A stretch of 64,000 bases of DNA. Source: Planctomycetota bacterium (GTDB lineage: Bacteria > Planctomycetota > Planctomycetia > Pirellulales > UBA1268). Every line of letters begins with the position of its first letter. Position 1 is the stretch's first letter. Made by a program: the position numbers and the translations under genes. This document shows, one piece after another, positions 39,617 to 64,000 of the stretch. The stretch is from assembly GCA_003669585.1 (NCBI GenBank), contig QWOQ01000014.1:21069-85068 (forward strand). The letters are read 5' to 3'. Under the pieces are notes generated by a model. That model ran no database searches. It saw only the letters and a program-made list of their open reading frames with translations, and had not been told where the DNA came from.

Positions 39617-39941
39617 GGATGCCTCCACGAATTCACACCGGGAATAATCTTTCAAATCATTTTCAGGGTTCCACGGACTACGAGCCCGTGAAAAGTTGGT
39701 CAAGATCTCCCGATCGCGACGTTTGTATCGACTTGAAGGACCACGCTTCTCAAGAAAATAAACGAGCATTCACGGAATCGTCTCACAGTGGGAAGACTGG
39801 GAGTCTTGAGAAAAGGCTTTTTGAACCGCGATCCCAAAAAGACAATTTCTTTTCGCGAGGAGGGGTTCGCTACGATACCGACGTCTTGCAAAGCAAGTAT
39901 CTGTCGTTCAGCCACTCGTTCCGTAAAGCACTCTCAAGAGT

Positions 39942-42102: not shown

Positions 42103-43899
42103 TCACTCGATTCGACCTCGCTGCCGCCAATATTTGAGTCCCGGTACGAAGAAGCAGCCGGCGCTCACAACTCCGAAAACGACATGCGAAAAATCGGTCG
42201 CGACGCACATCACAAGCGCTGTCGCGAAGAGCATGAATGCCTGAATATAAAACGTACCTGACAAAATTCCCGCTTTGGCAAAAAAGACAAGACCGGCCAA
42301 GAGCGCAAGCACCGGTGACAGTGTGAGCACTGGAACGCCTAAGAGTCCTTCGACCCAGAAGAGCATCACGGTGGCGATCACGCTGCCTCCCCAGAGATGG
42401 GCAATTTGACGTTCGACAAATGTCACCGGACCAGCTCGACTGCGCAGCGCCCACAAAATGGGTGCCCAAAGCGCAAGACCCCCGGCCCAGAGGACAAAAA
42501 AAGGCCATCGTGTCGTCACGCCCTGCCACGCAAGCAGATTAGTTGTGACGGAAATCGCCAACAGCACCACCGAGTGCCACATCCATAAAAGACCCCAGTT
42601 TTCAAGAATGACTGCATGGTGAGTTTCACGAAAAATCCTCGTCCACAACTGTCCAAAACTATCGCTTCTTGCCGCAAGCGGTTCGCCGGCAAGAAATGCC
42701 CTGAGATCAGCGGCGAACGCAGCAGCCGATTCGTATCGAAGTTCCTGAGGTTTCTGTAATGTTTTGAGCGCAATCATTTCAAGGTCGCGATTGACACGGC
42801 TATCGATCATTCGCGGAGGAGGCGGATCGGCCTCGAGCACTGCAAGCAGGGTGTCCATCGGGCTCGATGCTTGGAATGGCGGACGTCCTGTGAGCATTTG
42901 ATAAAGAATAGCGCCCAAGCTCCAAACATCGCTTGTTGGACCAACGTCCCCTCGACTCCCGGCAGCTTGTTCCGGAGACATGTAGCAAGGAGTACCGAGA
43001 ATTGCTCCAGTGTGGGTTACAAAACCATCCGATTCGATTCGTTTGGCCAGACCGAAATCAGAAATATGTGGAGATCCGGTCGAGTCGATCAGAATATTTG
43101 AAGGTTTTAAATCACGATGCAGGACACCCCGTAGATGCGCTGCATGAATAGCCTCGGCTACCTCCGCTAAAATTCTAGCCGCTTCTCGCGGCTTAATGAC
43201 CCCGGAAGAAAGTTGCTTTGAGAGCGTCGTGCCTTCAATGTATTGCATAGAAAAGAATGGATGTCCGTCACATTCAGCAACTTCGTAGACCGAAACAATC
43301 GCTGGATGATCTAACTGCGCGGCAGCCGCGGCCTCGGTTTGAAATCGCGCAAGATCTGCCCCGGTAGCCAGATCACGTCGCAGCAGCATTTTGATTGCAA
43401 CGATTCTTCCAAGGCTTTTTTGTTCTGCTCGATAGACCACGCCCATACCGCCACGACCAATCTCCTCAAGCAGTTCGTAGTCTCCGAGCGTTGCAGGCAA
43501 TGAGGAAACACTCGGAACAAATCCGGCCAATGGAGAGAAAGGTACATGTGGATCGAAAGCCATTGTTGAAGAAGAAGTAGATGCGTTGCCACCATCAGCG
43601 GAAAAACTGCGTTCAAAAATCGTAGAATGTTCTGCCATGGCATCGGCAAGCATCATGGCGGCCCAAAGTTCGCGAAGCGGGACCGCCAGATCAGGATGGT
43701 TTGCTACCACTGCTTCAAAATCACTTGTGGTTGCACTCTTTGAGCTCGAAAGTTTATCGAGGAGATTTGCAAGCCGTTCCTCTTGTTCATTTGAAAGCGA
43801 TAGAACGACGGCTTGCGAGGTGACCATGGAAAAATTCTCAACAAGACGAGAGTGGGTTTCAAAGTATCGTTTGACAGGATCGTGCGGACGACGAATCAA
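42103..43899 (-). CDS. Ser/Thr protein kinase with C-terminal polytopic membrane domain
   Basis: 598 aa. GRGGMGVVYRA, VAIKML, HRDLKPSNILI, DFGLAK, MSPEQ. The C-terminal ~200 aa contain ~6 hydrophobic helices. Confidence 0.9.
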   Translation of the reverse strand: MIRRPHDPVKRYFETHSRLVENFSMVTSQAVVLSLSNEQEERLANLLDKLSSSKSATTSDFEAVVANHPDLAVPLRELWAAMMLADAMAEHSTIFERSFSADGGNASTSSSTMAFDPHVPFSPLAGFVPSVSSLPATLGDYELLEEIGRGGMGVVYRAEQKSLGRIVAIKMLLRRDLATGADLARFQTEAAAAAQLDHPAIVSVYEVAECDGHPFFSMQYIEGTTLSKQLSSGVIKPREAARILAEVAEAIHAAHLRGVLHRDLKPSNILIDSTGSPHISDFGLAKRIESDGFVTHTGAILGTPCYMSPEQAAGSRGDVGPTSDVWSLGAILYQMLTGRPPFQASSPMDTLLAVLEADPPPPRMIDSRVNRDLEMIALKTLQKPQELRYESAAAFAADLRAFLAGEPLAARSDSFGQLWTRIFRETHHAVILENWGLLWMWHSVVLLAISVTTNLLAWQGVTTRWPFFVLWAGGLALWAPILWALRSRAGPVTFVERQIAHLWGGSVIATVMLFWVEGLLGVPVLTLSPVLALLAGLVFFAKAGILSGTFYIQAFMLFATALVMCVATDFSHVVFGVVSAGCFFVPGLKYWRQRGRIE

Positions 43900-44012
43900 C
43901 TTGCTCCAAGTACCTTAGGAGTCAGCGTGTGCGTTGGCCTTATTTCTAGGGTTACAGAGACCCGCCATATTTTTTAAAAACCGCTCGATTCGTCTGATTG
44001 ACAGGGAATTAT

Positions 44013-44693
44013 TCAATTTTCAACGCTTTCATATTCACCACTTAAAAGCGTTCGAAGCCGCCGCATGGCCCTCAGGTACCGCATTCCTGCTGCTGCGTTT
44101 GAAAGCCCCAAGACCTCAGCTGTATCGGCTGTTGAAAGATGCTCGAAGTGTCGAAGGAGTACAATCTGTCTATCTCCTTCTTCGAGCAGTTCCACGGCTA
44201 AACCAAACCGTCGTTCGAGTTCATGCCACGTCGCTGCAGCTGCAGGAGTAAGTTCACGGTCTGCCAGCTGCCCCATTATGTCGGCCTGCGAATGGTCGGC
44301 ACCCTCGAAGATCACAATTGGCACTTCCCGATCGATGCTCCGACTCGCAGCAACTCGGTGTCGACGGTGAGCATCAATCAACCGATCCTTTGCCATGTGG
44401 CGCAGCCAGATATGAAACGGCATTGATGGGCTTGCCAGATAATCTTTCAGCCGACGATTAGCTTCAAGCATGACATCCTGAACAATGTCGCTGGCATCCA
44501 CTCGTCGTTGAACGACCTTGTCCATTCGCATCTGAATCATCCGACGCAGCGATGAACGATGCCGATCGAGAAGGCTGTTGATTGCACCAAGATCACCGCG
44601 ACGCACCTGTTCAAGCAGCACAAGCGTTGGATTGGCTTCAGGTTTGAAGGAATCGATTCCTCCGTTTGTATCGGCGTTGTCAAAGGTGTTCAT
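44013..44693 (-). CDS. ECF-type RNA polymerase sigma factor (kinase-associated type)
   Basis: The ORF is open to 44771; ATG at 44693 is preferred. Region 2 DASDIVQDVMLEA...F.IWLRHMAKDRLIDAHRRH. Region 4 VLLRHFEHLSTADTAEVLGLSNAAAGMRYLRAMRRLR. Located 113 nt upstream of the kinase. Confidence 0.85.
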   Translation of the reverse strand: MNTFDNADTNGGIDSFKPEANPTLVLLEQVRRGDLGAINSLLDRHRSSLRRMIQMRMDKVVQRRVDASDIVQDVMLEANRRLKDYLASPSMPFHIWLRHMAKDRLIDAHRRHRVAASRSIDREVPIVIFEGADHSQADIMGQLADRELTPAAAATWHELERRFGLAVELLEEGDRQIVLLRHFEHLSTADTAEVLGLSNAAAGMRYLRAMRRLRTLLSGEYESVEN

Positions 44694-45012
44694 TGGCAAA
44701 TAACCTGCCGAGTATTGGAGAGAGCCACCATCATACCCCTTTCGACGCCTCTTCCGGTACGATTGTCGCAATCGGTTCTCTAACGTTTCAAAAATGGGCT
44801 GGGGGACAAGGGCTCAAAGTGTCCTTTACACAATAAAAAAAGCGAAAAATGACTCTTAGACGCTTGATGGTGGTGCGAAGCCATGTGAGGAAAATGGATC
44901 GATAAAATGGTCAGCCAGCATTGTAAATCCATGTAAATTGAATAGCTGGAGCAGATTTTGTACGGGTGCTAAAAGTTTCCGATGAAAAGTATTTTTTGAC
45001 CATCCTGAAAAC

Positions 45013-50309: not shown

Positions 50310-50807
50310 TTAGAGATTCATTCCTAAATAACCGCCAGCGGCGTCGCTCACTGCTTGCTCGCGCGCGAGCCTTTCGAGAGCTCTGGAAAGGTCCCCGGCA
50401 GCAATGTATCGGTCAAATTCGACCTCGACGGCGCGTTTTGCTGAAAGAGTCAGCCATTGCACTGCCGGCTGCGTAAGCCAGTCGCATGTCTCTTTGTCGA
50501 GCAGAATCGTCAGATCACTCCCAACTGTTTTTGAGTCTTTTTCATCGGTGAGGAGCGTTCCCTCAAAGACAAACTGAATCATTCCATCACTGGCATGATT
50601 GGTAAGCCGAAACGTACAGATCCCACTCCGCAGGTAATATGCATGTCGAGTTCCATGTCGGGAAACGGCTTGCTGCAAGCTCATCAATCGCTTTTGAAAA
50701 ACGGGTGATGCATCAAGTGGAATATCGAGTCGCGCAACTCCTCGAAGTGGAATGCATTCAAAAGAGACAATCACAGATGGATTTATTTCAGTCGTATTCA
50801 TATTCAT
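50310..50807 (-). CDS. Hypothetical protein
   Basis: 165-aa ORF between rsmG and apbE. No recognised motif. It overlaps only the implausible 5' extension of the apbE ORF. Confidence 0.45.
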   Translation of the reverse strand: MNMNTTEINPSVIVSFECIPLRGVARLDIPLDASPVFQKRLMSLQQAVSRHGTRHAYYLRSGICTFRLTNHASDGMIQFVFEGTLLTDEKDSKTVGSDLTILLDKETCDWLTQPAVQWLTLSAKRAVEVEFDRYIAAGDLSRALERLAREQAVSDAAGGYLGMNL

Positions 50808-52084: not shown

Positions 52085-52487
52085 GATTGCACCAGAGCGA
52101 CACATGCACCGATCGACTCTCGCCGTTGGTATCGCATGACAATGCATCCGGAAGCCAAGTTGTTTCACCCATCAACAGTTCGAGTTGCTGCAAGTTTGTT
52201 TTCCCATTTTGCCCTGCTTTTCCAGACCTAGACAGAGTGCCTGGCATTTTGTGAAACAGGGAAGACTTTTCTGATTAGACCCAAGTCTAACGATGAGGCA
52301 GTCGATACCAGTTGTGCTGTCGCTGCGCCTTGGGTGCGCTCATGAAAACTGACGATTGCGGAGTCGGGGGGCCCCGCAGTCGAGCACCACTTAATCCTAG
52401 GCAGTGCGCCACCCTAGGCGTAGCGGCAGTCCTTTTTTGAATGTTTCTCACACTCACCGATTCACGCGATTGAGCGAGCCCCTAATA

Positions 52488-54770
52488 ATGTCTCGAACAC
52501 TCAAAGTTCTTTGGGTTCTATTGACGAGTCTTTCGCTCGTTGGGAGCGGATGCGCACCGAGGCAACCATTTTATTTTTTCGAAGATGGCGATCTTTCGCA
52601 CTACGTAGGAGTCGTTCAAAAACTCGAATACCCAGATCTCGACGCTCAACCACTCGATGAAGCTGCTGGCACGCTTGAGCCGTTGACACTTTCCAATCCA
52701 AATTTTGACAAGGTATGGGAACTGTCGCTTGAAGAGGCCACTCGAACCGCGCTCGAAAATGGGAAAATCCTTCGAAACCTCGGTGGCCGCTTTGCAAGCT
52801 TTGGTGGACCAAGGCCACAGACCGGTGAACCAGCGGTGTCGCTGCTGACCAATCCCGAAGCGACTCCCTCGATCTACGATCCGGGCATTGCTGAAAGCGA
52901 TCCGTTTCGAGGCGTTGAAAGTGCTCTGTCAGCGTTTGACGCGCAGCTCTCGAGCAGCACCACATGGGAATACGGAAATCGACCTCAAAACGTAGATCCA
53001 TTCTTTCAAACATTTCTATTCGTACCAGTGCTCAGAACCACGACAGGCACCACGACCACTGGAATTTCAAAACGCACGGCCACTGGTGCACAGTTCGGCA
53101 TGTCCAACAGCATTATCTCGAATAACACCAATAATGCGTTTCGAGATGTCGACACCACATGGACGACTTCGTATGACTTTACATTCAATCAACCGCTCTT
53201 GCAGGGAGCTGGCTTGAACTACAACCGCATCGCCGGGCCAGATTCATTCGATAATCTTTTGGGAAGACCAAACTTTCGCGGCGTGCTCTTGGCCCGAATC
53301 AATGCCGATATTTCACTGGCTGATTTTGAGGCGGGTGTTCGAAATCTTGTGAGTGACGTTGAGCAATCGTACTGGGAACTCTACTTTTCGTACCGTAATC
53401 TCGAAGCGACCAAGGCGGGTCGCGATAGCTCACTTGAATCGTGGCGCAAAGTGCATGCGCTCTATGTGGAACAATCACGAGGCGGCGAGGCCGATAAAGA
53501 AGCGCAGGCTCGCGAGCAGTATTTTTCTTTTCGTGGTGAGGTTGAGCAGTCGCTCACCGATGTCTATCGAGCCGAAAATCGACTCCGTTATATGATGGGA
53601 ATTAGTTCGAGCGATGGTCGACTCATTCGTCCATCAGACGAACCCACCACTGCACGAATCTCATTTGATTGGCAGCAATCGCTCGTTGAGGCACTCTCTC
53701 GCTCGGCGGAATTGCGCAAACAAAAGTGGCGTGTGAAACAACGTGAACTCGAACTCACCGCCGCCAAGAATCTGCTTCTGCCGAGGCTCGATGTCGGCGG
53801 CAGGTGGCGGTTTTTGGGTGTCGGTGAACAACTCGTCAACCAAGACTACCAACCCTACCCACAGTCTGGCGCGACTCCCGCAATTCCAGCGGCAGTAACA
53901 TTTAATGGAACGGATGCGTATTCTTCGATGCTCAGCGGTCGCTTTCAGGAATGGCAGGCCCAGGCCCAGTTTTTAATGCCGATCGGCTTCAGGCGCGAGC
54001 TTTCAACGGTGCGAAACTTTCAGTTGCAGGTCGCCCGTGAAAAGGCCCGACTGCAGGACGAAGAACTCGAGGTATCTCACGCACTGGTCGAATCAGTACG
54101 CAACGTCGACACAAATTTTGCCTTGTCTCAAACCAATTTCAATCGTCGCGTCGCCGCAGAGAAACAGGTGGATGCCGTACAGGCAGCCTACGATGCAGGC
54201 ACGATCACACTCGACCAGCTTCTCGATGCACAGCGTCGCCGGGCTGTTGCGGAGAGTTCTTATTACCGTTCACTCGTCGACTACAATCGGTCCATATCAC
54301 AGCTCCACTATCGCAAGGGATCGCTGCTGGAATACAACGGCGTCTATCTCTCGGAAGGTCCGTGGCCAGGCAAAGCCTATTTTGATGCCCATCGTCGGGC
54401 ACGCCAGAGAGATGCCAGCTTGTATCTCGACTACCGACATTCCAAACCCGGAGTCTTCAGCCGCGGTCCGATTACACAGGATTTCGGTTCGATCGGTGCC
54501 GATCCCAAGGCAGTCCAACTGCCGCCGCGCGATCCAGCGACAAAGGATGACGAGTATCAATCTCCTGTAAAAAGCGACATGTCTTCACCAGAGGTCTTAC
54601 CGACGCCGGCCGAACGACCCGATCAGACATCTCAACACACGCCGCCATCAAACACCAATCGGGACGATGCAGTTCGCGTAACTGCCGATTGGAAAAGCCC
54701 GGGTCTTTCAGCTGGCCGACTTTTGAGTGATCCAGATGCTGCAGTGGCTACTGAAATCGTCACTCGGTAG
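52488..54770 (+). CDS. TolC-like outer membrane efflux protein (OEP family) with extended C-terminal tail
   Basis: The ORF is open from 52404. ATG at 52488 gives MSRTLKVLWVLLTSLSLVGSGC (lipobox). Two OEP-like repeats (LSLEEATRTALENG...; ...AAKNLLLPRLDVGG...AYDAGTITLDQLLDAQRRRAVAESSYYRSLVDYNRSISQLHYRKG). The last ~130 aa are a Pro/Asp-rich tail. Confidence 0.75.
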   Translation: MSRTLKVLWVLLTSLSLVGSGCAPRQPFYFFEDGDLSHYVGVVQKLEYPDLDAQPLDEAAGTLEPLTLSNPNFDKVWELSLEEATRTALENGKILRNLGGRFASFGGPRPQTGEPAVSLLTNPEATPSIYDPGIAESDPFRGVESALSAFDAQLSSSTTWEYGNRPQNVDPFFQTFLFVPVLRTTTGTTTTGISKRTATGAQFGMSNSIISNNTNNAFRDVDTTWTTSYDFTFNQPLLQGAGLNYNRIAGPDSFDNLLGRPNFRGVLLARINADISLADFEAGVRNLVSDVEQSYWELYFSYRNLEATKAGRDSSLESWRKVHALYVEQSRGGEADKEAQAREQYFSFRGEVEQSLTDVYRAENRLRYMMGISSSDGRLIRPSDEPTTARISFDWQQSLVEALSRSAELRKQKWRVKQRELELTAAKNLLLPRLDVGGRWRFLGVGEQLVNQDYQPYPQSGATPAIPAAVTFNGTDAYSSMLSGRFQEWQAQAQFLMPIGFRRELSTVRNFQLQVAREKARLQDEELEVSHALVESVRNVDTNFALSQTNFNRRVAAEKQVDAVQAAYDAGTITLDQLLDAQRRRAVAESSYYRSLVDYNRSISQLHYRKGSLLEYNGVYLSEGPWPGKAYFDAHRRARQRDASLYLDYRHSKPGVFSRGPITQDFGSIGADPKAVQLPPRDPATKDDEYQSPVKSDMSSPEVLPTPAERPDQTSQHTPPSNTNRDDAVRVTADWKSPGLSAGRLLSDPDAAVATEIVTR

Positions 54771-54789
54771 CCGCGTGGCAATACCGACA

Positions 54790-55998
54790 CTATGAAGCCC
54801 GGGGCAGGGCTGCCGCAGCAATCGCTTGCTGGAGTTTAACCGAATCGATTTTTCGAATAGCTTCCAAGTGTTCACTGGCTGCTGGAAGTGGACAGGCCGA
54901 TAGATATCCGGCAACCGCGCGGCGGATCATGACATCGTCGCTGCCTAGCGATTGCCAAAGCAAAGCCACCTCATCGATTGATTTCCAGTATTGCATTCGT
55001 GCAAGATCCACCACGGTATCGGCCGAAACAGCAGGAGCATGAATCAGGCGGGCGGTTGCTTCCGCGATCTGATCCTGCGCGATCCAAGCACCAAGATACT
55101 CGTGCCCAAATCGCAAAGCAGAGAGGAGGTGACGTTGATCGGTTGCTCGAGCGCGTTTATTGAAAAGCCCCAATTCAACAAATTCCTGAAGACCTTTCTC
55201 GCCTTCACCGACAAGCAATCCTGCAAGCAAGCCGTCGAATCCTGCGCGAAAATCATCGGCCGGTTTTCGAATTTCCGTACGAAGCGTTTCCAGACACGCT
55301 TCCTTCAGGTTTATGTCGGTCGTTTTGTGAGCCACACAGCCAAGAGCCAAACCGTAAAAACCCCGTCGACGCTGACGAACACCGACTTCTCCAACCCATT
55401 GCTGAAGTTTGATTGGATCAAATGAATCGAATGCTTCTAGAACTGCTTCAAACGGTGCCTGACCAAATTCCGCAAACGCATCGTCTGCAATTACTTGATC
55501 GAAGTGCTCCAGTCGGCTTGAAAACCATCGCAGTCGCTCGACAGCAGGCAGTGAAGTGTCTGGCGCGAGGGCCACGTAAGCCAGAAGGCCTTCATCGGCC
55601 GGCATCGCCTGCCAATCGAGTTCAGCGGGAAAGTCGGCACGCGTCTGCGTTCCAAAAAGCAGTGCAGTGCCATGGATCGGAGATCGAACCCGTGCAACGA
55701 CGTCGCCGGTGGGTGAGGAAAATTTTCCACGAAGCACCTGTAGTACGAGCAATCGTTGCAGGTTATCGACGGGGGGAAGAATCGAATCTCCGACCGCGGT
55801 GACATCTACGTGGTCTCGAACTTCCGCGAGTGGCTGGCCAACCACTCCACAAAATGGACAGGCTTCCAAAAGAAATACGTTTGTACTGCCATGCATTACA
55901 AGCATCAGGTACAAAATGCTTTGGGGCGCGCCTGCTCGGAGGATTCGACACCATTCAAAAATTCGACGATGCTTCATCCGCGTTGGAAAATATTTCAT
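54790..55998 (-). CDS. Uncharacterised CPFC/ACPLP-motif protein, paralog 2 (helical-repeat-like)
   Basis: 402 aa. ATG 55998-55996 overlaps the upstream TGA as ATGA. N-terminal hydrophobic segment, then EACPFC (55849-55860). C-terminal YLSACPLPAASEHLEAIRKID. Clearly paralogous to the 57445-59046 product. Confidence 0.6.
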   Translation of the reverse strand: MKYFPTRMKHRRIFEWCRILRAGAPQSILYLMLVMHGSTNVFLLEACPFCGVVGQPLAEVRDHVDVTAVGDSILPPVDNLQRLLVLQVLRGKFSSPTGDVVARVRSPIHGTALLFGTQTRADFPAELDWQAMPADEGLLAYVALAPDTSLPAVERLRWFSSRLEHFDQVIADDAFAEFGQAPFEAVLEAFDSFDPIKLQQWVGEVGVRQRRRGFYGLALGCVAHKTTDINLKEACLETLRTEIRKPADDFRAGFDGLLAGLLVGEGEKGLQEFVELGLFNKRARATDQRHLLSALRFGHEYLGAWIAQDQIAEATARLIHAPAVSADTVVDLARMQYWKSIDEVALLWQSLGSDDVMIRRAVAGYLSACPLPAASEHLEAIRKIDSVKLQQAIAAAALPRAS

Positions 55999-56597
55999 CG
56001 AACGGCCTCACCGTCCATTGAATAAATGGCCAAGTGATTGCCATCGGGACCTTTGAGTTCTGTGATTCTAAAAATACCGGTCACAGCCACGGGTCGAATT
56101 GAAAAACTGGTCGAAGTTCCAACATTCATACGCACAACAATGCAGTCATAGAGCGCCGCACCCGGTCCAAAGCAGCATTCCATATTGTCACGCACAAGCA
56201 CAAACTGCGTGAGTCCGTTTTGCTGAAAACTCGGGAGAATATAACCGCGAATTCTGACTCTTCGACCCTCAAACGCCTCGATTGTGGGTGGTATAAGTTC
56301 GCGATGAAACGGCGAACCTTTCTCAAGATCAAACTTGACATCATCAAACGATAGTTCGATTGGTCGGCCAGCGTCTGACTGTCGAGGTATCACCGCAGGC
56401 TTTTCCGAAACATCTGCCGTGGGTAATTGTGAAACTGTTTCGGACTGCGATGGCAGGAGACGCGAGGCGGCAGGTTCTTGCGTTGAAAGAGAAGAATGTC
56501 CCGAAGGATTGCCGCAGCCATTGAGCACAACAACGACTGAGAGAAACAGTGGCAGAAGCAATGGTCTGCGTGAGCCGAATAAAGAGCGAAAATCCAT
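55995..56597 (-). CDS. DUF3299-like (CCFG motif) lipoprotein, paralog 2
   Basis: The ORF is open to 56780. ATG 56597-56595 overlaps the upstream TAA as TAATG and gives MDFRSLFGSRRPLLLPLFLSVVVVLNGC (lipobox). C-terminal domain GRRVRIRGYILP...QFVLVRDNMECCFGPG. Confidence 0.65.
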   Translation of the reverse strand: MDFRSLFGSRRPLLLPLFLSVVVVLNGCGNPSGHSSLSTQEPAASRLLPSQSETVSQLPTADVSEKPAVIPRQSDAGRPIELSFDDVKFDLEKGSPFHRELIPPTIEAFEGRRVRIRGYILPSFQQNGLTQFVLVRDNMECCFGPGAALYDCIVVRMNVGTSTSFSIRPVAVTGIFRITELKGPDGNHLAIYSMDGEAVR

Positions 56598-57286
56598 TAT
56601 CGCACGACAGCATTTTCGATGTGGTAATAGACGCCGCCCTCCATCGCTGAAAGACCTGTGTCGCGAACTGAAAATCGGCCTGCAACTTTTGTCATTCCAG
56701 CAGAAAACGAGATCCCATTCGGGTCCTGAAGTTGCACAAGAACTCGATCGGTAATTTTCGGATTGCCGCCAAAGCAACAATCTCCCTGATCCCGAACCAG
56801 CAGGAATTGCACGATGCCACGAGTCTGATCTCCCGGATACATATAGCCCTTGAGAAGCACTTCTTTTCCATGAAACGCGAGGGCAGCATCTGGAATGGCA
56901 TAGTCTGGATCGCCTTCAAGCGGCTGAAGATCGGAGTAGCTGAGTCGCTCGAAACCTTCCGGAAGTTCGGCAACGTAGATCATGGTTTGATAGGAAAGAC
57001 CTCCTAGCAAGAACACTGCCGACAGGCTTGCTCCGCCGATGGCAAGCGGAATTCCTGCGAGTTGTTGTGGGCGATCGAGAATATGCAGCCACGCAAGAAG
57101 CCCGAAGACAAATCCGAGTATTGGCACGATTGCAAACCACCAGCCGGCAAAACAGAGCGGTGAAAGTATCGCGAGCACAACACTTGCAATCGCAAGTCTG
57201 CTGTAGGCGAGATATTCAGGCGTTTCGTCGAACGCGGAATCTGGCAGCGTGCGGCGATCGACGAAAGAAGTTGCCATGGCGTTCAT
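56597..57286 (-). CDS. DUF3299-like (CCFG motif) protein with N-terminal polytopic membrane anchor, paralog 1
   Basis: 229 aa. About 3 TM helices (residues ~30-105), then GKEVLLKGYMYP...QFLLVRDQGDCCFGGN, which aligns with the downstream paralog. Confidence 0.65.
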   Translation of the reverse strand: MNAMATSFVDRRTLPDSAFDETPEYLAYSRLAIASVVLAILSPLCFAGWWFAIVPILGFVFGLLAWLHILDRPQQLAGIPLAIGGASLSAVFLLGGLSYQTMIYVAELPEGFERLSYSDLQPLEGDPDYAIPDAALAFHGKEVLLKGYMYPGDQTRGIVQFLLVRDQGDCCFGGNPKITDRVLVQLQDPNGISFSAGMTKVAGRFSVRDTGLSAMEGGVYYHIENAVVR

Positions 57287-57444
57287 GTGAAAAGAGCGAG
57301 CTGAAAACAGTGGCGGTCGACGGTGTCGTCTTTCAGAAGTCTACCGCCACAAACGCTAAAAATCTTTCGGTCTATTTGTTCACGATCGCTTTTGATGTCG
57401 AGAAGCTGGCGAACGGACGCTTCTCCCGCAAAAAATACGGCTTG

Positions 57445-59046
57445 TCAGCCGGGCTTTCCGGTAGGTCGCATCACAATTCGTGCCATGGCTGCCACAATCA
57501 AGACAATGACCGCCCAAGCACCCCATCGCACGATTCGAGTGCGATCAAAAATTTCATCGCGACCGGCAGGCGGTGCTCTGGAATGAGACGTTGCTTGCGC
57601 ATCTGGAGAACCTTCTGACGATTCGGAATCCGTTGGAATCTGATCATCCGTCGCGTCTTCATCGGCCAGAACAGGAGCGATTTTTTTTGCGATCGCGAGG
57701 TCCTCGTGCTCCATGACGGCTTCATCCTCTGTCAAAACCGTGTCAACAGAATCAGTGACGCTGGGTTTTGTTGCACCGTCATCTTCGTCGCCGGATTCTC
57801 GAAGTGCCGTGCCGTCGACAGCTGCCGACTGAGAAAGAGCAAAACCCGCAAGGGTTGCCGCGCGACGAACTGCTTCCGGATCGATCGTTCTTAATCGTTC
57901 CAAGGCGTCGACAGCTTCAGGCAACGGGCATGCTTTCATATAGTTAGCAATTGGTTCTCGCACAAAAATGTTGTCGGCGTTGGCTTCTGCGAAAAGCTTT
58001 TCGAGTTTTGCCAGAGCCGACCAATCTTCCCAGCGAGCAAGATCGGCAATTACGAGGTCGGCGAGTTTGGGTTGATCGAGTAGACGCTCAAGAGATTCAA
58101 GCACTCTGGCTCTTGGTACGATCTCGGTTTCCTCGCCGAGAAATCGCAACGCCATCACCGCCGCATACGTTTCCGTAAAGGGAATTTCCTTGTCGCTTTT
58201 TGTTAAAAATAGTTCGTCGATCTGATCAAGCCCACGAGAACCGCGAAGCGTGACAAAACAGGCAATCAAGGCATCGAGCCCCACTCGCAATTCGGAGTCT
58301 TTTCCACGTAGAATTGCCTCGATTCGATCGGCATCCTGATTCGATCCACAGACCCCGAGCATTGTGGCATAGAGTCGACGACGACTCGATTGAACCTTTG
58401 GATTTTCAATCCACGCAAGAAGTTTTTCCGGGTGCATTTGATCGCGGAGCCCACGCACATCCGCATAGGGTGCTACTGCAAATTCGTCGTATGCATCACG
58501 GGCCATTGTCTCGTCAGAATATTCCAAATAATCCTGAAAAAACGCTAGCCGACCGGCCCCGGCTTTTGGAAGGTCTTGCAGTTTTCGTAAATACGCGGCC
58601 GATTCTGGGCCAAGCGTAATTGGACTCGACCAGAAAAGTTTTGGCGGTTCGATGGCCAGCAGTAAAAACATCCCGCCAAGCGGCTTGTCTTCAAGCAGAA
58701 TTGCTTCAATTGTTTCGGCATCCGGTCCAAGGAGCCCAGCCGCTTCGGCCAAGTCTCCCCCTTTGAGTATTTCAACGATTTTGAATCGTCCCTTGGGAAG
58801 TGGACCTTGGGAGGTTGGCTTGAGCGATTCTGCATCTGGTCCTTCGACCAATTGCGCCACAACAGCAACCTCGCTCTGATCGATCTCCTGCGTAAAGGTG
58901 AGGGAGACTGCTGAGCAAAATGGACAGGCAGGTAGATTCATCGTAGTCACGAGATGAATCCCGGTCATAACAAGCACCACAAAGGCGCGCAGTCGTGTCG
59001 ATCGCGTGATCGTTTGAAAAAAGTGGTTCCGTTGTTGAGTGTGCAT
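57445..59046 (-). CDS. Uncharacterised CPFC/ACPLP-motif protein, paralog 1, with acidic linker and C-terminal TM anchor
   Basis: 533 aa. N-terminal hydrophobic segment, then PACPFC (58915-58926), YMKACPLPEAVDALERLRTID, an acidic region, and C-terminal WGAWAVIVLIVAAMARIVM. Confidence 0.6.
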   Translation of the reverse strand: MHTQQRNHFFQTITRSTRLRAFVVLVMTGIHLVTTMNLPACPFCSAVSLTFTQEIDQSEVAVVAQLVEGPDAESLKPTSQGPLPKGRFKIVEILKGGDLAEAAGLLGPDAETIEAILLEDKPLGGMFLLLAIEPPKLFWSSPITLGPESAAYLRKLQDLPKAGAGRLAFFQDYLEYSDETMARDAYDEFAVAPYADVRGLRDQMHPEKLLAWIENPKVQSSRRRLYATMLGVCGSNQDADRIEAILRGKDSELRVGLDALIACFVTLRGSRGLDQIDELFLTKSDKEIPFTETYAAVMALRFLGEETEIVPRARVLESLERLLDQPKLADLVIADLARWEDWSALAKLEKLFAEANADNIFVREPIANYMKACPLPEAVDALERLRTIDPEAVRRAATLAGFALSQSAAVDGTALRESGDEDDGATKPSVTDSVDTVLTEDEAVMEHEDLAIAKKIAPVLADEDATDDQIPTDSESSEGSPDAQATSHSRAPPAGRDEIFDRTRIVRWGAWAVIVLIVAAMARIVMRPTGKPG

Positions 59047-59216
59047 TAGGTTTCATTTCTCCAGATTGGTGTACGAGCCCCACCACAAAGTGCGATCGCA
59101 CCGTTTGAGTCTACGATGAGCCAGTCATCAAATGCTGCCTCAAATATGTTGATTGTCAGAACAAGCATTCTTTCAGTTCCATGTTCTCTTGGCTGACAAA
59201 GGCTTTAGTATGCGAA

Positions 59217-60551
59217 TTAGCCCGAACTTTGCAGCCACTTGGAGACATCGGTGCGATAGGCCAACAGTGCCGGAACAAGCCCGGCTGCAATCGCCAGAAG
59301 AACAAGCATCGGCACGAGCAGCAGTTCTGCACCCGGAGCTGCTGAAAGAGCGCTTGCTGAAACTCCAGCATAAGAGGTGATCCAAGGTCCGGCCGCTCCA
59401 ACAAGCACGTGGCCCAAAATCCATCCGACAGCTCCACCGCCAACTGCAAGCAGCACCGCTTCAAGGAATACAACAATCATCACGTGGGATCGTCTCGCTC
59501 CAAGGGCACGCATGATGGCAACATCTCGTTTGCGTTCCATCATGGATCCAATCATGCTCACCAGCATGCCAACTGCCGAAACGATGACCACCATCGTCGT
59601 AACCAAAAGCAACAGCAATTCGATCGGCCGAACAAAGAGTCCCAGAAGCTGACTAATTTCTGCAATCGGAAGAGCAGATTGCACATCGAGCCCTTCATTG
59701 AGCAGCGTGCGTAGTCCGATGGCCGTAAGCTCAGCCGGCTGCCCAGGCGCTGACGCCGTTCGCAGCAGCACCGCCGTGACCTCTCGCTGTTCTTTCGGTA
59801 ATGCAAGAGGTCGTGTGCCATCGTCTTTATTGTGTTCGGAACTTTGGCTCGCAGGCGTTGGGTGTCCATCGATAGGCTTGGCATGTCCCTCCTGAAGATA
59901 AAATCCTTCCATATTGACAAAGGCACCACGGTCAATCGGACTTCCAGTGCGTTCAAGAATCCCTACTACCGTAAAGGGATCGTGCTTTGCGCCATCGTCG
60001 GCACCATGCGTTGGAGAAAACGTGTCGCCAATCTTCAGGCCAATACTCGCAGCGACCGATGCACCGAGTACTCCTTCAAAAAAGGCCTCGTCGGTGAAAT
60101 TTCTCCCCTGCGAAAAACGATACGGATCGACATTGCCACTCTTAAGCTTTCCAAAGGCGGCGCTATTGGTGCCGATGACTCGGAAGCCTCGAAAATAATC
60201 CCCCATACAAATGGGCACCGCCGTTGCCACAAATTGTGCGTAGGTACCATCAATTCCATCGGCACGCGAAGCAGCGGGCAGGAAATCTTCGTACCGGGCA
60301 AACGGAATATTTTCAATTGGCCTGCTGATGTAATAGACGGTATTGAGTACCAACTGCAGCGGACTCCCCTTCGCGCCGACAATCATGTTGTAACCAAGCC
60401 CTGAACCGGAATCGAATGCCTGCCGCACAACTCCACCGGTCACCAGCGTTGCTACAACCAGCGCCACCCCAAGAGCCAGCGAAAACGCCGTCAGCAGCGA
60501 TGTCGCCATGCGCTGACGAAGACTTCGCAATGCAATCCCAAACAGACTCAT
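59217..60551 (-). CDS. ABC transporter permease, FtsX/MacB type (4 TM plus large periplasmic domain)
   Basis: The ORF is open to 60674, which would overlap the ATPase gene. ATG at 60551 gives MSLFGIALRSLRQRMATSLLTAFSLALGVALVV, the typical MacB/LolC N-terminus. The FtsX C-terminal region contains RKRDVAIMRALGARRSHV. Confidence 0.85.
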   Translation of the reverse strand: MSLFGIALRSLRQRMATSLLTAFSLALGVALVVATLVTGGVVRQAFDSGSGLGYNMIVGAKGSPLQLVLNTVYYISRPIENIPFARYEDFLPAASRADGIDGTYAQFVATAVPICMGDYFRGFRVIGTNSAAFGKLKSGNVDPYRFSQGRNFTDEAFFEGVLGASVAASIGLKIGDTFSPTHGADDGAKHDPFTVVGILERTGSPIDRGAFVNMEGFYLQEGHAKPIDGHPTPASQSSEHNKDDGTRPLALPKEQREVTAVLLRTASAPGQPAELTAIGLRTLLNEGLDVQSALPIAEISQLLGLFVRPIELLLLLVTTMVVIVSAVGMLVSMIGSMMERKRDVAIMRALGARRSHVMIVVFLEAVLLAVGGGAVGWILGHVLVGAAGPWITSYAGVSASALSAAPGAELLLVPMLVLLAIAAGLVPALLAYRTDVSKWLQSSG

Positions 60552-60579
60552 TGTCAGATTCTCCAAACGTTCAAGTATC

Positions 60580-61293
60580 TCATTCGATGTTGGTCGCAAT
60601 CGACGCAGCCATTGATCGAGCAAAAACACGATTAAAATCCTCGATCCGCACTCGAACTTCAAACTGCGATGCAACCTCGGGTGAATGCGTGACGATCAAA
60701 AGAGCTGATCCATGATCACGACAGGTCTTTTTGAGTAGCTCAACAACCGTTCTCTGATTTGAGGGATCAACACTCGCGGTTGGTTCATCCGCCAGAACGA
60801 CACGAGGACGATTGGCAATTGCGCGGGCTACCGCAACTCGCTGTTGTTCCCCCATCGACAAAGCTGCCGGACGATGGGATAGACGGTGTTCAAGGCCAAC
60901 CGCCGATAACAGATCGATTGCCCGGCGACGATCGGCTTTGCCAGAGCCAAAGGACATGGCGACTAAAACATTCTCAAGCGCCGTAAATCCAGGAAGAAGA
61001 TTGAATGACTGAAATACCATGCCAAGCTTGTCGGCACGCACTCGATCGCGATGAGCTTCCGAAAGCTTTCCAAGTTCTATTCCGTCGAGAATGACGCGTC
61101 CGGAATCGGGGCTTGTAATGCCTGAGAGGACATGCAGAAGTGTTGACTTTCCCGACCCGCTACGCCCTTCAAGAGCGATCTGCTCTCCACATGCGAGGGA
61201 AAAGTGTTCTATGTCGAGTACCTCAAGTCGGCGTCCCGGAGACTCGGGATAGCTTTTTTTCACCTGCTCAAGTTCGAGAACGCCAAGCACCAT
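60580..61293 (-). CDS. ABC transporter ATP-binding protein (MacB/LolD-like)
   Basis: 237 aa. Walker A GRSGSGKST, Q-loop VFQSFNL, signature LSMGEQQRVAVARA, Walker B VVLADEPTAS, H-loop VTHS. Confidence 0.9.
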   Translation of the reverse strand: MVLGVLELEQVKKSYPESPGRRLEVLDIEHFSLACGEQIALEGRSGSGKSTLLHVLSGITSPDSGRVILDGIELGKLSEAHRDRVRADKLGMVFQSFNLLPGFTALENVLVAMSFGSGKADRRRAIDLLSAVGLEHRLSHRPAALSMGEQQRVAVARAIANRPRVVLADEPTASVDPSNQRTVVELLKKTCRDHGSALLIVTHSPEVASQFEVRVRIEDFNRVFARSMAASIATNIE

Positions 61294-61464
61294 GGTTGAT
61301 TGTTTCCGTATGTTTGTGTGAACGCAAAAAACTCTGCGATCAAAAAGGGTACTTGCGATGTTCGCCGATGAACGTGAGGCACACGCTCAAGAGAGAGTGT
61401 TCTCAAGAGGGTTGCATGTGATCATGATGGGAAAATCGTGGTGAGGATTCAACCGTAGAATTTT

Positions 61465-62262
61465 TTACTTGAGATCCTTGAAAAAGTCACCGAGCTTTTC
61501 ATTGTCTGCGGACGGCTTTTGTTTCGTCTGGTTTGCGAGGTCCCACTGCATTGCTTCAGCGTTTTGAGACTCGTTGGAATCTATATTTTCAGCACCTAGA
61601 AAACTAAAGGAAGGCCCGTCCCGAACTGGGGCATCATCATCAATCGCAAGAGCGTCGAGCCCAGCAGGAGTCTCAACAGATTCAGAATCGACGACGACAT
61701 GTTCCAAGTTTTGAATCTCATCGATGTCTTGAACGTCTTGCGCTACGGATTCGCGAGGTTCTTCTTTTGCCAGTTCGATAACCGGCACATTCTTCTTGTG
61801 CGTGTCGCATTCGTCAGGTGAATGGAACTGATCCGCCACATGATGAATCTCAATGGATTCCGCTGGATCGTGTTCGAGTTGATTATAGGCAACTGTTTCA
61901 TCGCTTTGATCGTGAGCAGACGTTGTTTCAGAAATGCCATATTCAATTCGAATGAGGACGCTGCCGACGCGTACGAGCGAACCGCTCTTCACGGGCATCT
62001 TGACCTTCGATGGCAGCGTCTCTCCATTCATCTGGGTGCCGTTGGTCGATCCCAAGTCACGAATAAAAAGATGGCCGTCGTCATCGAAAAACTCGCAGTG
62101 CTTTCGACTGATGCGAACGTGCTCGATTCGAAACTTTACATGCTCACCGCGGCCGATGAGAAGCGGCACGGTGACCTGATGGCTACCCTGCTTTGATTCC
62201 GGCTCCAGCACTACAAACCGAACTTTCATGGACATAAAAATACGCTTACGTGTTGAATCCAA
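61465..62262 (-). CDS. FHA-domain protein with acidic C-terminal region
   Basis: 265 aa. LLIGRGEHVKFRIEHVRISRKHCEFFDDDGHLFIRDLGSTNGTQMNG is a canonical FHA core. The remainder is D/E-rich and low complexity. Confidence 0.85.
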   Translation of the reverse strand: MDSTRKRIFMSMKVRFVVLEPESKQGSHQVTVPLLIGRGEHVKFRIEHVRISRKHCEFFDDDGHLFIRDLGSTNGTQMNGETLPSKVKMPVKSGSLVRVGSVLIRIEYGISETTSAHDQSDETVAYNQLEHDPAESIEIHHVADQFHSPDECDTHKKNVPVIELAKEEPRESVAQDVQDIDEIQNLEHVVVDSESVETPAGLDALAIDDDAPVRDGPSFSFLGAENIDSNESQNAEAMQWDLANQTKQKPSADNEKLGDFFKDLK

Positions 62263-62614
62263 AATGACTCGTCATCACCACTCAGCCGAACGTTTCTAAA
62301 AAGAACGGAATATTAAAAGCGGCACTCGATGTGGGATACAGTTTTTTCAAAAGTTCGCCGATTTTTGTTAAAAGCCTCCCAAAGTCTATTCTTCTTTTTG
62401 AGAAGATGCTGGCAAAGTGCCAATGAATGCTCTGAAGCTGGTGAAATGGGGAGGGACAGGGAAAGGCTATTGCGTACTCCCATGCGACATTCGCTGACCT
62501 TGCGGCCCCCCCGATTGTCCCTATACTCGCGGGGTTTACGTCGTTTCTCTTTTCACAATGTTTTTTTGCGGTCCTTCTGCTGCGATGACATGACGAGAGG
62601 TTGAATCGGAAAAT

Positions 62615-62687
62615 GCGGGTGTAGCTCAGTTGGTAGAGCACCACGTTGCCAACGTGGTTGTCGTGGGTTCGAATCCCATCACCCGCT
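62615..62687 (+). tRNA. tRNA-Gly (anticodon GCC)
   Basis: gcgggtg tagctcagttggtagagca ccacg ttGCCaa cgtgg ttgtc gtgggttcgaatcccat cacccgc t. The 7-bp acceptor stem, D-loop, anticodon loop (GCC at 62648-62650) and T-arm GGTTCGAATCC were all read directly. CCA is not encoded. Confidence 0.9.
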
Positions 62688-62750
62688 TCTCGAGGAGTTT
62701 TTGAGTCGTTCACATTTTTCTGTTTTTTCTAGAGATCCCCAGAGAGTTTC

Positions 62751-64000
62751 ATGACCACTTCCGAGTCCGCCATTGCACAAGCATCCTCAGACCTTCCTGA
62801 GGCCCCCCAGTCTCTCAAGATCGATGTATCGATCTCGAAGGTCTCGACCTGCCAGCGACGTATCAAAGTAACGATTCCCAGAGAAGACATTGATCGCTAC
62901 TACGACGAAGCCGTCCGCGATCTTATGCCCACAGCTTTAATGCCGGGGTTTCGTCCTGGACGCGCGCCGAGATCACTTGTTGGTCATCGGTTTAAAGCTG
63001 AACTCGGCGATCAAATTCGCTCAAAGCTTCTGAACGACGCGATGGCCCAGGTGGGAGAGCAAGAAAAACTCGCCCCGATCAGCGAGCCCGATCTCGATGT
63101 GAATGCCGTAGTGCTCCCAGATACTGGACCGATGATGTTCGAGTTTGGAATCGAAGTGCGTCCCGAGTTTGACATTCCCAACTGGAAGGGACTTTCGATT
63201 CGACGTCCCACTCGTGAGATCTCGGCGGACGATGTAGATCAAGCCGTGACTCGGTTGCTCCGCGAACGCGGTCGTCTTGTGCCCTACGATGGTTCTCCGT
63301 CCAAGGGCGATTTGATCGTAGTAAATGTGCGATTTCTTGACGGAGATCGGCTTGTATCGGAAGCATCCGAACTTGAAATCATCGTGCGTCCAACGCTTTC
63401 GTTTGCCGATGGACTGCTCGATGGCTTTGACGTGTTGGTCCATCAATCTAAAGCTGGATCAAAAGTCTCTGCAGAGGTCAACGTATCGAACGAGGCTGCT
63501 GACGAAAAACTTCGTGGCGGCAAAGTGACGATGGAAATGGAAGTTGTCGAGGTGAAAAAACTCGAACTCCCAACACTCAGTTCTGAACTTTTAAGTGAGC
63601 TTGGCGATTTTTCCTCTTTCGAACAGCTTCGGGTTGCGGTGCAAAAGCAACTGGAAAACCAACTGGAATGGCATCGGCGACGTCAGGTTCGTCAGCAGGT
63701 TGCAAGTGCACTCACCGCCTCGGCAACGTGGGATCTTCCTCCCGATCTTTTAAAGCGTCAAAGCCAGCGGGAATTAGAGCGATCGGTGCTCGAACTGCGA
63801 CGCAGTGGATTTGACGATGACTCCATTCGACGACACGTTAACGAGCTGAGGCAGACCGTCATGGCCAGCACGGCCAGATCGCTCAAAGAGCATTTTATTC
63901 TTGAACGCATTGCAGAAGATGAATCGATCACAGATGCGTCCGCCGATTACGACGAAGAGATTCGCGCCATTGCAGCACAGTCGGGCGAATCGCCTCGCCG
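62751..64000 (+). CDS. tig: Trigger factor (partial; continues beyond the window end)
   Basis: ATG at 62751, and the frame is open to the window end, so it is absent from the ORF track. My translation is MTTSESAIAQASSDLPEAPQSLKIDVSISKVSTCQRRIKVTIPREDIDRYYDEAVRDLMPTALMPGFRPGRAPRSLV. This is the trigger-factor N-terminal ribosome-binding domain pattern (GFRPGkaP). Confidence 0.85.
   Translation, partial: MTTSESAIAQASSDLPEAPQSLKIDVSISKVSTCQRRIKVTIPREDIDRYYDEAVRDLMPTALMPGFRPGRAPRSLVGHRFKAELGDQIRSKLLNDAMAQVGEQEKLAPISEPDLDVNAVVLPDTGPMMFEFGIEVRPEFDIPNWKGLSIRRPTREISADDVDQAVTRLLRERGRLVPYDGSPSKGDLIVVNVRFLDGDRLVSEASELEIIVRPTLSFADGLLDGFDVLVHQSKAGSKVSAEVNVSNEAADEKLRGGKVTMEMEVVEVKKLELPTLSSELLSELGDFSSFEQLRVAVQKQLENQLEWHRRRQVRQQVASALTASATWDLPPDLLKRQSQRELERSVLELRRSGFDDDSIRRHVNELRQTVMASTARSLKEHFILERIAEDESITDASADYDEEIRAIAAQSGESPR

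Follow-up and report, generated by a model that had tools for sequence, protein, structure and literature searches.

A planctomycete gene cluster encoding a MacB-type ATPase and permease, paired DUF3299 proteins and predicted CPFC solenoid proteins

This analysis concerns a 64,000-nucleotide stretch of contig QWOQ01000014.1 (assembly GCA_003669585.1) of a Planctomycetota bacterium of the order Pirellulales, hereafter the window, in which six co-directional open reading frames (ORFs) on the minus strand, at 54790-61293, encode an ATP-binding cassette (ABC) ATPase, a MacB/FtsX-type permease, two proteins with a CPFC motif (P1 and P2) and two DUF3299-type proteins with a CCFG motif (D1 and D2). 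The cluster is tentatively read, at a likelihood a little short of even, as a planctomycete form of the MacB-type (type VII) ABC machines associated with DUF3299, which include ZrgBC with ZrgE and PA4064-PA4066, and as one that would handle thiophilic metals or metal complexes in the periplasm through cysteines. The core of ABC proteins and DUF3299 is a known and poorly understood kind of system; the P proteins, the doubled, membrane-attached DUF3299 with its paired-cysteine (CC) loop, the absence of DUF2796 and the lack of a detectable Zur/Fur-type element are new.

When zinc is scarce, DUF3299-associated MacB-type systems help Vibrio and Pseudomonas to grow, and in V. cholerae they also play a part in virulence. 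To our knowledge, envelope transport in planctomycetes has barely been characterised.

Gene order and its conservation

According to the ORF listing, the genes follow one another on the minus strand as ATPase, permease, P1, D1, D2 and P2. An earlier, sequence-only reading of the window had described these six co-directional genes with the same boundaries, and all six were found. It had also called the last three junctions tight. This holds for two of them, since direct reading of the minus strand gives a TAATG overlap of the D1 stop and D2 start (56595-56599) and an ATGA overlap of the D2 stop and P2 start (55995-55998), both as claimed, but not for the third, where P1 and D1 are separated by 158 nucleotides. 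The remaining gaps are 28 nucleotides between ATPase and permease and 170 between permease and P1. The automatic ORF listing stretches the permease to an upstream TTG at 60674 and D2 to an upstream TTG at 56780; in ortholog alignments, conservation of the permease starts at M1 and the lipobox Cys28 of D2 is invariant, therefore the ATG starts of both are supported.

The accessory genes had been described as a mirrored duplication. The order P1-D1-D2-P2 stands, but the mirroring is one of gene order only, and both paralogue pairs are ancient. P1 and P2 share 28 % identity over approximately 384 residues (E 2e-33), and D1 and D2 share 35 % identity over the C-terminal 100 residues (E 4e-16).

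The gene order is beyond chance, since it is kept in 80 genomes at species level and also in lineages further off. A collection of contigs with one genome per species has up to 437 places with a confirmed relative of P1, and synteny was assessed for 80 loci in such contigs with P1 identities of 50-65 %, the denominators given here being the loci with enough sequence. D1 and D2 directly follow P1 at every one of 64 loci. The ABC pair is directly upstream on the same strand at 51 of 59, inverted at three, about 7 kb off at four and absent from one. Further downstream, P2 is present within 6 kb at 32 of 37 loci and is followed by a convergent TolC-like gene at 22 of 28. P2 comes directly after D2, as in the window and the distant locus L087, or past a three-gene insertion; this insertion, of Bestrophin-like, Peripla_BP_6 and AIM24 genes, is present in the majority of the related Pirellulales-like genomes (L001:10857-13629, L003:11126-13969 and many GTDB loci). 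The cluster in the relatives is located among the housekeeping genes gapA, tig and clpP.

Distant lineages, in which P identity is around 33-40 %, repeat this order amid flanking genes that are unrelated. All six genes, in the order ABC, permease, P1, D1, D2, P2, are present with 4-nucleotide overlaps at L087, and ABC, permease, P, D, D are present at L086 and L088. At L085, from the Pirellulaceae metagenome-assembled genome (MAG) JAWKTS010000011.1, there is P-D-D and no adjoining ABC pair. Each D at L085-L088 keeps CCFG and each P keeps CPFC, and a CPFC-bearing P occurs together with a CCFG-bearing D in every locus examined. The recurrent order and the kept motifs in distant lineages support a functional link within the five-gene core. 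P2 and the TolC-like gene, judged by the same comparisons, appear to be frequent but dispensable neighbours.

It is hardly credible that these genes are neighbours by descent that do no joint work. The inverted and displaced ABC pairs of seven relatives, the P-D-D set of L085 and the gaps of 158-170 nucleotides, with a hairpin, between some genes of the window would all be in keeping with such an explanation. However, it does not account for the recurrence of the order at 33-40 % P identity amid unrelated flanks, the intact P-D-D trio at 64 out of 64 loci, the start and stop codon overlaps in the window and in L087, or the linkage of DUF3299 to this permease subfamily across three phyla.

The ATPase and permease

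The 237-residue ATPase (60580..61293, minus strand) is of the LolD/MacB nucleotide-binding-domain-like class and matches PF00005 with 113.7 bits. Its motifs are intact, with the Walker A sequence GRSGSGKST, a signature-like LSMGEQQR, the Walker B sequence VVLADEPT and the H-loop VTHS; Walker A, Walker B and the H-loop are kept in 64 orthologues. The permease (59217..60551, minus strand; 444 residues) scores over the Pfam cut-off for both MacB_PCD (PF12704, 49.4 bits) and FtsX (PF02687, 55.1 bits), and with these matches the ATPase and FtsX/MacB-type permease of the sequence-only reading are confirmed. There are four hydrophobic segments in the permease (19-37, 313-331, 352-370 and 410-428), and a domain of about 275 residues, predicted to be periplasmic, is between the first and second transmembrane (TM) segments.

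The nearest NCBIfam models to the ATPase are LolD, YbbA, DevA, FtsE and MacB, every one of them under its cut-off. Identity with LolCDE was considered and rejected, with LolD at 201.9 bits against a cut-off of 307.75 and lolCE at 26 against 362.45. Among solved structures in the PDB, MacB, YtrF and LolF match the permease in the FtsX region only, with E 4e-7 or worse. Resemblance to MacB, LolC/E, FtsX and DevC is thus far below that to the plasmid-borne relatives described next.

When the permease was compared by tblastn with 72,556 plasmids, the best matches were from Phaeobacter, in operons of Fur, DUF2796, ABC, permease and DUF3299 genes. As annotated, the Phaeobacter locus encodes a Fur-family regulator, a DUF2796 protein, an ABC ATPase, a permease and a DUF3299 protein. 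The window ATPase is 38 % identical to its Phaeobacter counterpart (E 7e-49) and the permease 31 % identical end to end (E 3e-51). Based on Pfam matches and homology, the permease is placed in the DUF3299-associated (ZrgB/PA4065-like) subfamily, and the pair is assigned to the ZrgB/ZrgC (PA4065/PA4064) subfamily by proxy, through the Phaeobacter operon proteins. The link to Zrg and PA4063-66 drawn in the sequence-only reading is thus borne out by homology, through the operons that contain the closest plasmid relatives of the permease.

Within the periplasmic domain, the motif PTHGADDGxxHDPF (59973..60014, minus strand) is kept in 68 orthologues. Seven permeases were aligned, of which four are of the planctomycete type, two belong to Pseudomonadota and one to Deinococcota; the columns P113, G117, D118, H182, G183, H190, G203, D207 and E215 are invariant. 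The motif is a candidate metal-ligand site, and the invariance of H182, H190, D118, D207 and E215 supports a link of this permease subfamily to metals. So does the Fur-family gene that adjoins the Phaeobacter operon, as does the permease of Ruegeria, which has a long periplasmic loop rich in His, Asp and Glu; in the window permease this loop is short and has several histidines.

The paired DUF3299 proteins

D2 (55995..56597, minus strand; 200 residues) matches DUF3299 (PF11736) with 26.9 bits against a cut-off of 22. It is a predicted lipoprotein with a lipobox, LNGC (Cys28), a disordered linker of approximately 55 residues and a DUF3299 oligonucleotide/oligosaccharide-binding (OB) domain with the loop ECCFGPGA. 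The similarity of D2 to PA4066 (4hsp_A) is slight by sequence, E 0.0097 with the single sequence and 5.5e-4 with a profile, and clearer by fold, since a Foldseek search with the AlphaFold2 (AF2) model returns 4hsp at the top (E 1.9e-7), followed by generic OB folds. Some D2 orthologues carry the NCBI label 'DUF3299 domain-containing protein'. The DUF3299 assignment made from the sequence alone is therefore upheld for D2.

For D1 (56597..57286, minus strand; 229 residues) it is upheld indirectly. Taken alone, D1 is under the Pfam threshold for DUF3299 (E 0.049, 14.2 bits against 22), as it is for DUF4190 (E 1.6e-4), and it is considered to be a DUF3299-like OB protein because of its paralogy with D2. 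A hydrophobic region of about 70 residues at the N-terminus, DUF4190-like and with two or three predicted TM helices, would anchor it in the membrane; the OB domain, with the loop DCCFGGNPKITD, follows. The block FLLVRDQGDCCFGGNPKITDRVLV of D1 is at least 90 % conserved among 79 orthologues.

The CCFG loop is at residues 170-173 in D1 (56768..56779, minus strand), where it was read from the sequence and is kept in orthologues as well as at L085-L088, and at residues 141-144 in D2 (56166..56177, minus strand), where it was located in alignments with DUF3299 relatives. It belongs to a block that is nearly invariant in D1 and D2, F-x-LVRD-x-x-[DE]-CCFG, and C28, C141 and C142 are the invariant cysteines among D2 orthologues. 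In the alignments, the CC loop corresponds to GACIH(V/T)PPPP of canonical DUF3299 proteins; the canonical G-A-C-I-H-x-P-P-P-P is replaced by ECCFGPGAA in D2 and by DCCFGGNPK in D1.

A third form of the loop is present in Deinococcus radiodurans R1. Upstream of a related ABC pair on plasmid pMPI (NZ_CP038977.1 55477-55935; L091:2743-3198) there is a gene for a 152-residue 'hypothetical' protein which has no Pfam match and which hhalign identifies as a D-like OB protein (probability 96 %, E 2.5e-9). Its loop equivalent to CCFG contains CPFC and aligns as TCPFC. The same loop therefore carries C-x-H in canonical DUF3299, CC in planctomycetes and CPFC in Deinococcus, and this occurrence of three cysteine-containing forms in three lineages suggests that this loop is where the DUF3299 family functions, by ligand binding or by redox. 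None of the DUF3299 literature found by search deals with planctomycetes.

The CPFC solenoid proteins

P1 (57445..59046, minus strand; 533 residues) is described from its AF2 model, hydropathy and composition. A signal peptide is followed by CPFC (residues 41-44), a small beta domain (~58-145), an ARM/HEAT solenoid (~149-409), an acidic tether predicted to be disordered (~406-500; 25 D+E against 6 K+R) and a TM anchor (508-526). The tether, of approximately 90 residues, holds the conserved motif IAPVLADEDATD, and ACPFCSAVSLTF is invariant among P1 orthologues. In the model, pLDDT (the predicted local distance difference test score) is around 90 over residues 50-400 and 18 helices span 149-409. 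Foldseek gives generic ARM/HEAT matches only (designed armadillo proteins, importin-alpha, DOHH and CpcE/F, probability ~1), at E 1.2e-3 or worse, and the predicted membership of P1 in ARM/HEAT is at the level of fold only.

P2 (54790..55998, minus strand; 402 residues) is the paralogue of P1 and likewise has a signal peptide, CPFC (residues 47-50; 55849..55860, minus strand), the beta domain and the solenoid. Neither the acidic tether nor the C-terminal anchor is present, and the hydropathy scan gave no TM segment. CPFCG is kept in 41 P2 orthologues. Both size classes are seen among the best 150 representatives of the family, P2-like proteins being around 380-400 residues long and P1-like proteins 500-630, and a C-terminal hydrophobic anchor is present in 89 of the 94 P1-like members.

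The CPFC of P1 (58915..58926, minus strand) is present in 131 of the same 150 representatives, at a median position of 28, and C41 and C44 are invariant in a diverse alignment of the P family. The tripeptides before it are mostly AAA, ARA, AQA, AVA, AEA and ASA. As A-x-A is a site of the signal-peptidase-I type, cleavage there would leave a mature P protein that probably starts with Cys-Pro-Phe-Cys.

More than 2,130 homologues of P1 and 621 of P2 were found, every one named 'hypothetical'. Those with named sources are all from Planctomycetota MAGs, a few genome-scan bins bearing names that are probably mislabelled. The names attached to the clusters of distant P representatives are all of uncultured Pirellulaceae or Planctomycetales. 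A search of 1.84 billion representatives with the P profile matched 2,658 clusters (formed at 50 % identity) with E<=1e-3, of which 1,040 reach E<=1e-30. There is no curated family for P1 or P2, since Pfam gives HEAT_2 below its threshold only and NCBIfam gives nothing, and phmmer found no match to P1 in the PDB. The P profile gave low-complexity matches in the PDB and one non-significant segment of MPT53. These results agree with the statement in the sequence-only reading that P-type partners are not known from Zrg-type systems, as does the lack of relationship to DUF2796: P as a relative of ZrgA/DUF2796 was rejected when hhalign of the P profile with the Phaeobacter DUF2796 protein gave a probability of 0.1 %.

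The cysteines raise the possibility of a thiol-disulfide redox module, in which P1 and P2 would be CPxC oxidoreductase-like proteins acting on the CC loops of the D proteins or on a client, with the ABC proteins driving client release or quality control. CPFC is an active-site sequence of the glutaredoxin/DsbE type, all four accessory proteins have conserved cysteines, and in the P1 model a helix and then a strand come after the CxxC, as in thioredoxin folds. When the P profile was compared with the PDB, the N-terminus had a single local match, to the active-site segment 'WCPFCNAEAPSLSQV' of M. tuberculosis DsbE/MPT53; at E 0.16, however, it is not significant. Moreover, neither Pfam nor NCBIfam gives a thioredoxin-family match and Foldseek gives no thioredoxin fold, the signal peptide takes the place of the strand found before CxxC in thioredoxin folds, no electron source of the DsbD/CcdA type is encoded nearby, and the related systems of other phyla are tied to metals rather than to redox. 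A redox module is thus improbable.

Relation to characterised systems

The zrgE/B/C/A/D genes of V. parahaemolyticus and PA4063-66 of P. aeruginosa share the layout of the Phaeobacter operon (PMC9817125, PMC11481552). In both Vibrio and Pseudomonas these systems are under Zur control and affect the handling of zinc or cobalt (PMC9817125, PMC9820375, PMC11481552). It is disputed whether they import zinc or export a metallophore, and no role has been assigned to DUF3299 (PMC9820375, PMC11481552).

The planctomycete cluster resembles these systems in its split ATPase and four-TM MacB-like permease with a large periplasmic domain, in the DUF3299 OB-fold protein alongside, the D2 model matching the fold of PA4066, and in having no classical substrate-binding protein. 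It differs in that it is without DUF2796 (ZrgA/PA4063) and DUF2607 (ZrgD) and has one or two CPFC-solenoid proteins instead. Its DUF3299 is doubled and membrane-attached, by TM helices in one copy and a lipid anchor in the other, with the loop CCFG rather than ACIHxPPPP. In addition, neither a Zur gene nor a Zur box was found at the cluster, which is common among the planctomycete genomes sampled.

These differences bear on the proposal that the cluster is an orthodox Zur-regulated zinc importer, a true orthologue of ZrgABCDE and PA4063-66 with the same role. The homology of the ATPase, permease and DUF3299 would fit, as would the phenotypes reported for Zrg under zinc limitation (PMC9817125, PMC9820375). 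An orthologue with the same role would not be expected to lack both DUF2796 and DUF2607, to have P proteins unrelated to DUF2796, to carry CCFG in place of ACIHxPPPP and duplicated DUF3299 with both copies membrane-attached, or to be without a Fur-family gene and a recognisable Zur/Fur-like operator. This proposal is very unlikely.

A variant on a Ruegeria conchae plasmid (NZ_CP081104.1; L092:2044-5944) encodes an HlyD-type fusion protein, an ABC ATPase, a permease and DUF3299. It has the same permease subfamily and DUF3299 partner as the planctomycete cluster and differs in its conventional membrane fusion protein, its His-rich permease loop, the loop ACIHTPAPP and the absence of a P-type protein. 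A second DUF3299 gene, adjoining a carbohydrate porin gene, is nearby on this plasmid. The variant shows that the third component of the module, the periplasmic one, is interchangeable. In the planctomycete cluster, P1 and P2 fill the accessory slot that is held elsewhere by the His-rich DUF2796 (ZrgA/PA4063) or by an HlyD-type adaptor.

MacAB-TolC is similar in its MacB_PCD and FtsX architecture, its LolD/MacB-like ATPase and, possibly, its TolC channel, since a TolC-family gene adjoins the cluster; its mechanotransmission model could be applied to the cluster. In contrast to MacAB-TolC, the cluster lacks an adaptor of the HlyD/MacA type and encodes its ATPase as a polypeptide of its own, the similarity to MacB is confined to the FtsX region (E 4e-7) and the TolC neighbour is lineage-specific. 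In the MacB family, ATP-driven movement is passed to the periplasmic domain and no transmembrane channel is formed.

An alternative use of the motor would be as a pump or extractor of something other than metal, an organic molecule that is secreted or belongs to the envelope, such as a lipoprotein, a lipid or glycolipid, a peptide or a siderophore-like compound, with the D and P proteins replacing the HlyD adaptor and perhaps docking to the TolC-like channel. It is possible, if on balance doubtful. MacB-family exporters and extractors are known, including MacAB-TolC, LolCDE and PvdRT, and export of pyochelin-cobalt has been proposed for PA4064-65 (PMC11481552). The Ruegeria relative is encoded with an HlyD-type adaptor as well as DUF3299, the TolC-like gene converges on P2 at most loci (22 of 28), the 90-residue tether of P1 would give the solenoid a long periplasmic reach, and the cluster is widespread and located among housekeeping genes. 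However, an invariant CxxC, an invariant CC and a conserved pair of histidines are left unexplained, TolC is not adjacent in the distant lineages, no biosynthetic gene cluster adjoins, and the ATPase and permease are far under the LolD and LolC/E cut-offs.

By functional analogy only, rather than by sequence or fold, two metal carriers are also comparable. MerP hands Hg(II) from a CxxC to a vicinal CC of MerT, and CusF is a periplasmic metallochaperone with an OB fold. The cluster likewise has a periplasmic CxxC with a membrane-proximal vicinal cysteine pair and an OB-fold protein that would feed an envelope transporter. There is no HMA domain, and the energy source of the cluster is an ABC ATPase.

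Proposed mechanism

A metal role is favoured because of three observations taken together: the permease has a conserved set of His and Asp residues, DUF3299 has a Cys/His loop, and the P proteins have an invariant CPFC. In the mechanism proposed, the cytoplasmic ATPase and the four-TM permease would form the motor. D1 by its TM helices and D2 by its lipid anchor would be held at the inner membrane as OB proteins of the DUF3299 fold, and P1 would be tethered to the membrane by the acidic linker of about 90 residues and the C-terminal anchor. ATP hydrolysis would cause a conformational change in the periplasmic domain of the permease, with its invariant His-His-Asp/Glu set, by mechanotransmission. 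This movement may force the transfer of a thiophilic metal ion or complex between the CxxC of P, the vicinal CC loop of D and the permease, which implies physical interaction of these proteins in an arrangement that might span the periplasm. The cargo could then be moved outward, with the TolC-like channel encoded next to the cluster as a possible exit, or be passed on to an uptake route.

Several points weigh against this metal-handling reading. Neither a metal-responsive regulator gene, among the scanned window ORFs, nor an operator or riboswitch, in or near the cluster, was found. Given the high conservation and the housekeeping neighbours, a constitutive envelope function fits at least as well. 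The cysteines in the periplasm might have no role beyond structural disulfides, the TolC-like gene is a neighbour in certain lineages only, and the direction of transport is disputed even for the known systems. Furthermore, PA4066 has no evident zinc binding (PMC11481552), and deletion of zrgE in V. cholerae gave no phenotype (PMC9820375).

A more specific and more speculative proposal is that MacB-type motors have, in P1 and P2, periplasmic partners of a new class. These would present CPFC at the mature N-terminus as a metal or redox hook on an ARM/HEAT solenoid, which in P1 is tethered by the long acidic linker, and together with the membrane-attached CC-loop DUF3299 proteins would make up a cysteine relay powered by ATP, or an adaptor free of a fusion protein, across the unusually wide planctomycete periplasm to the TolC-like channel. 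On the present evidence, this full arrangement is unlikely.

Regulation and components not found

Zur/Fur-type palindromes, for which a search upstream of the ATPase and P1 had been suggested, were not found: there are no inverted repeats in the promoter-side gaps at 61280-61480 and 59030-59230 and no Fur-box-like site near the cluster, although planctomycete Zur sites are not known and this absence is no proof. No match to the sigma-70 consensus was found in the window, and no Fur-family or other metal-responsive regulator gene is present among the scanned window ORFs. An Rfam scan of 54000-63000 found no riboswitch, the only hit being a tRNA gene (RF00005, 74 bits) at 62615-62687 on the plus strand, just past the FHA gene.

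Conserved sequence upstream of the ATPase in relatives was considered as a regulatory element and rejected, as it is the start and promoter of the divergent gapA. A promoter of the ABC operon in the relatives, TTGACA-N17-TAnnnT, explains the remaining upstream conservation.

The 158-nucleotide spacer between P1 and D1 is specific to the window, the gaps in relatives being 4-60 nucleotides. A weak terminator-like hairpin with a short stem is at the P1 stop codon (57438-57451, minus strand), and the spacer contains a 12-bp inverted repeat followed by UGUUUUC (57310..57350, minus strand), for which the evidence is also weak. A structured RNA was rejected, because the whole spacer folds no better than shuffled sequence (z = -0.75). 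The spacer hairpin may, on this weak evidence, be an internal terminator, an attenuator or a processing site.

DUF2796 has no match in Pfam searches of the cluster products. HlyD and Biotin_lipoyl have no match in the six products or in the other scanned window ORFs of at least 200 residues, and no substrate-binding protein is encoded in the cluster or among these ORFs. The lack of a substrate-binding protein and of an HlyD-type fusion protein, as remarked from the sequence alone, is consistent with these searches.

Neighbouring genes and other features of the window

Both of the neighbours named in the sequence-only reading, a TolC-like gene and an FHA gene, are present; neither is a universal companion of the cluster. 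The TolC-like outer-membrane factor (52404..54770, plus strand; 788 residues; lipobox LVGSGC; OEP, 76.7 bits) is encoded convergently to P2, with the stop codons 19 nucleotides apart. It is a conserved neighbour in the Pirellulales-like clade and is not beside the cluster at L086-L088; that it is a partner of the cluster is possible. The protein is unusually long, with a C-terminal extension rich in Pro and Ser, and its conservation among relatives is very high (1,150-1,350 bits). The FHA gene (61465-62262, minus strand) is 171 nucleotides upstream of the ATPase. It was rejected as a partner, as in relatives it is 6-8 kb off and on the opposite strand.

Some other genes were observed close to the relatives of the cluster. 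At L085:2193-9306, directly upstream of the P homologue, there is a prokaryotic ubiquitin-like set (a YukD-like Ubl, a UQ_con E2, two JAB, a ThiF E1 and Prok-RING_1). After the cluster at L086 (14071-15825) and L088 (10225-12048) there is a protein of approximately 600 residues with weak matches to squalene-hopene-cyclase/prenyltransferase-like (alpha/alpha toroid) proteins; a 383-residue squalene-hopene-cyclase/prenyltransferase-like protein is encoded in the window far from the cluster (11148-12299). Genes for an extracytoplasmic function (ECF) sigma factor and a Ser/Thr kinase are directly upstream of the ABC genes at L087 (2436-4838) and, in the window, some 10 kb away from the cluster (42103-44771, minus strand). 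As planctomycetes have many such pairs, this proximity may be a coincidence.

Elsewhere, the window has the content of an ordinary planctomycete chromosome, with genes that include a BamA-like gene, hemA, a hemD-hemE fusion, GSIII, rsmG and ApbE in addition to the ECF sigma factor and Ser/Thr kinase. In the hem fusion (14681-16627, plus strand), HEM4 (uroporphyrinogen-III synthase) is joined to URO-D (uroporphyrinogen decarboxylase). A Sua5/YciO/YrdC domain is fused to a low-molecular-weight phosphotyrosine phosphatase at 8230-9492 (plus strand). Window ORFs of 165-380 residues without a Pfam family are located at 50310-50807, 38627-39769 and 27870-28814 on the minus strand and at 10245-10967 on the plus strand.

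Significance

An ATPase-permease-DUF3299 core is common to at least three phyla, and it is the third periplasmic component that varies, being DUF2796, an HlyD-type adaptor or a CPFC solenoid. The comparison also defines a large unannotated protein family, the P family, which is undescribed in Pfam and NCBIfam. The switching of one DUF3299 loop between C-x-H, CC and CPFC offers a concrete target for mutagenesis. If P1 and P2 do prove to be a new class of partner for MacB-type motors, the variable Cys/His loop of DUF3299 would be the long-sought functional site of the DUF3299 family across phyla.

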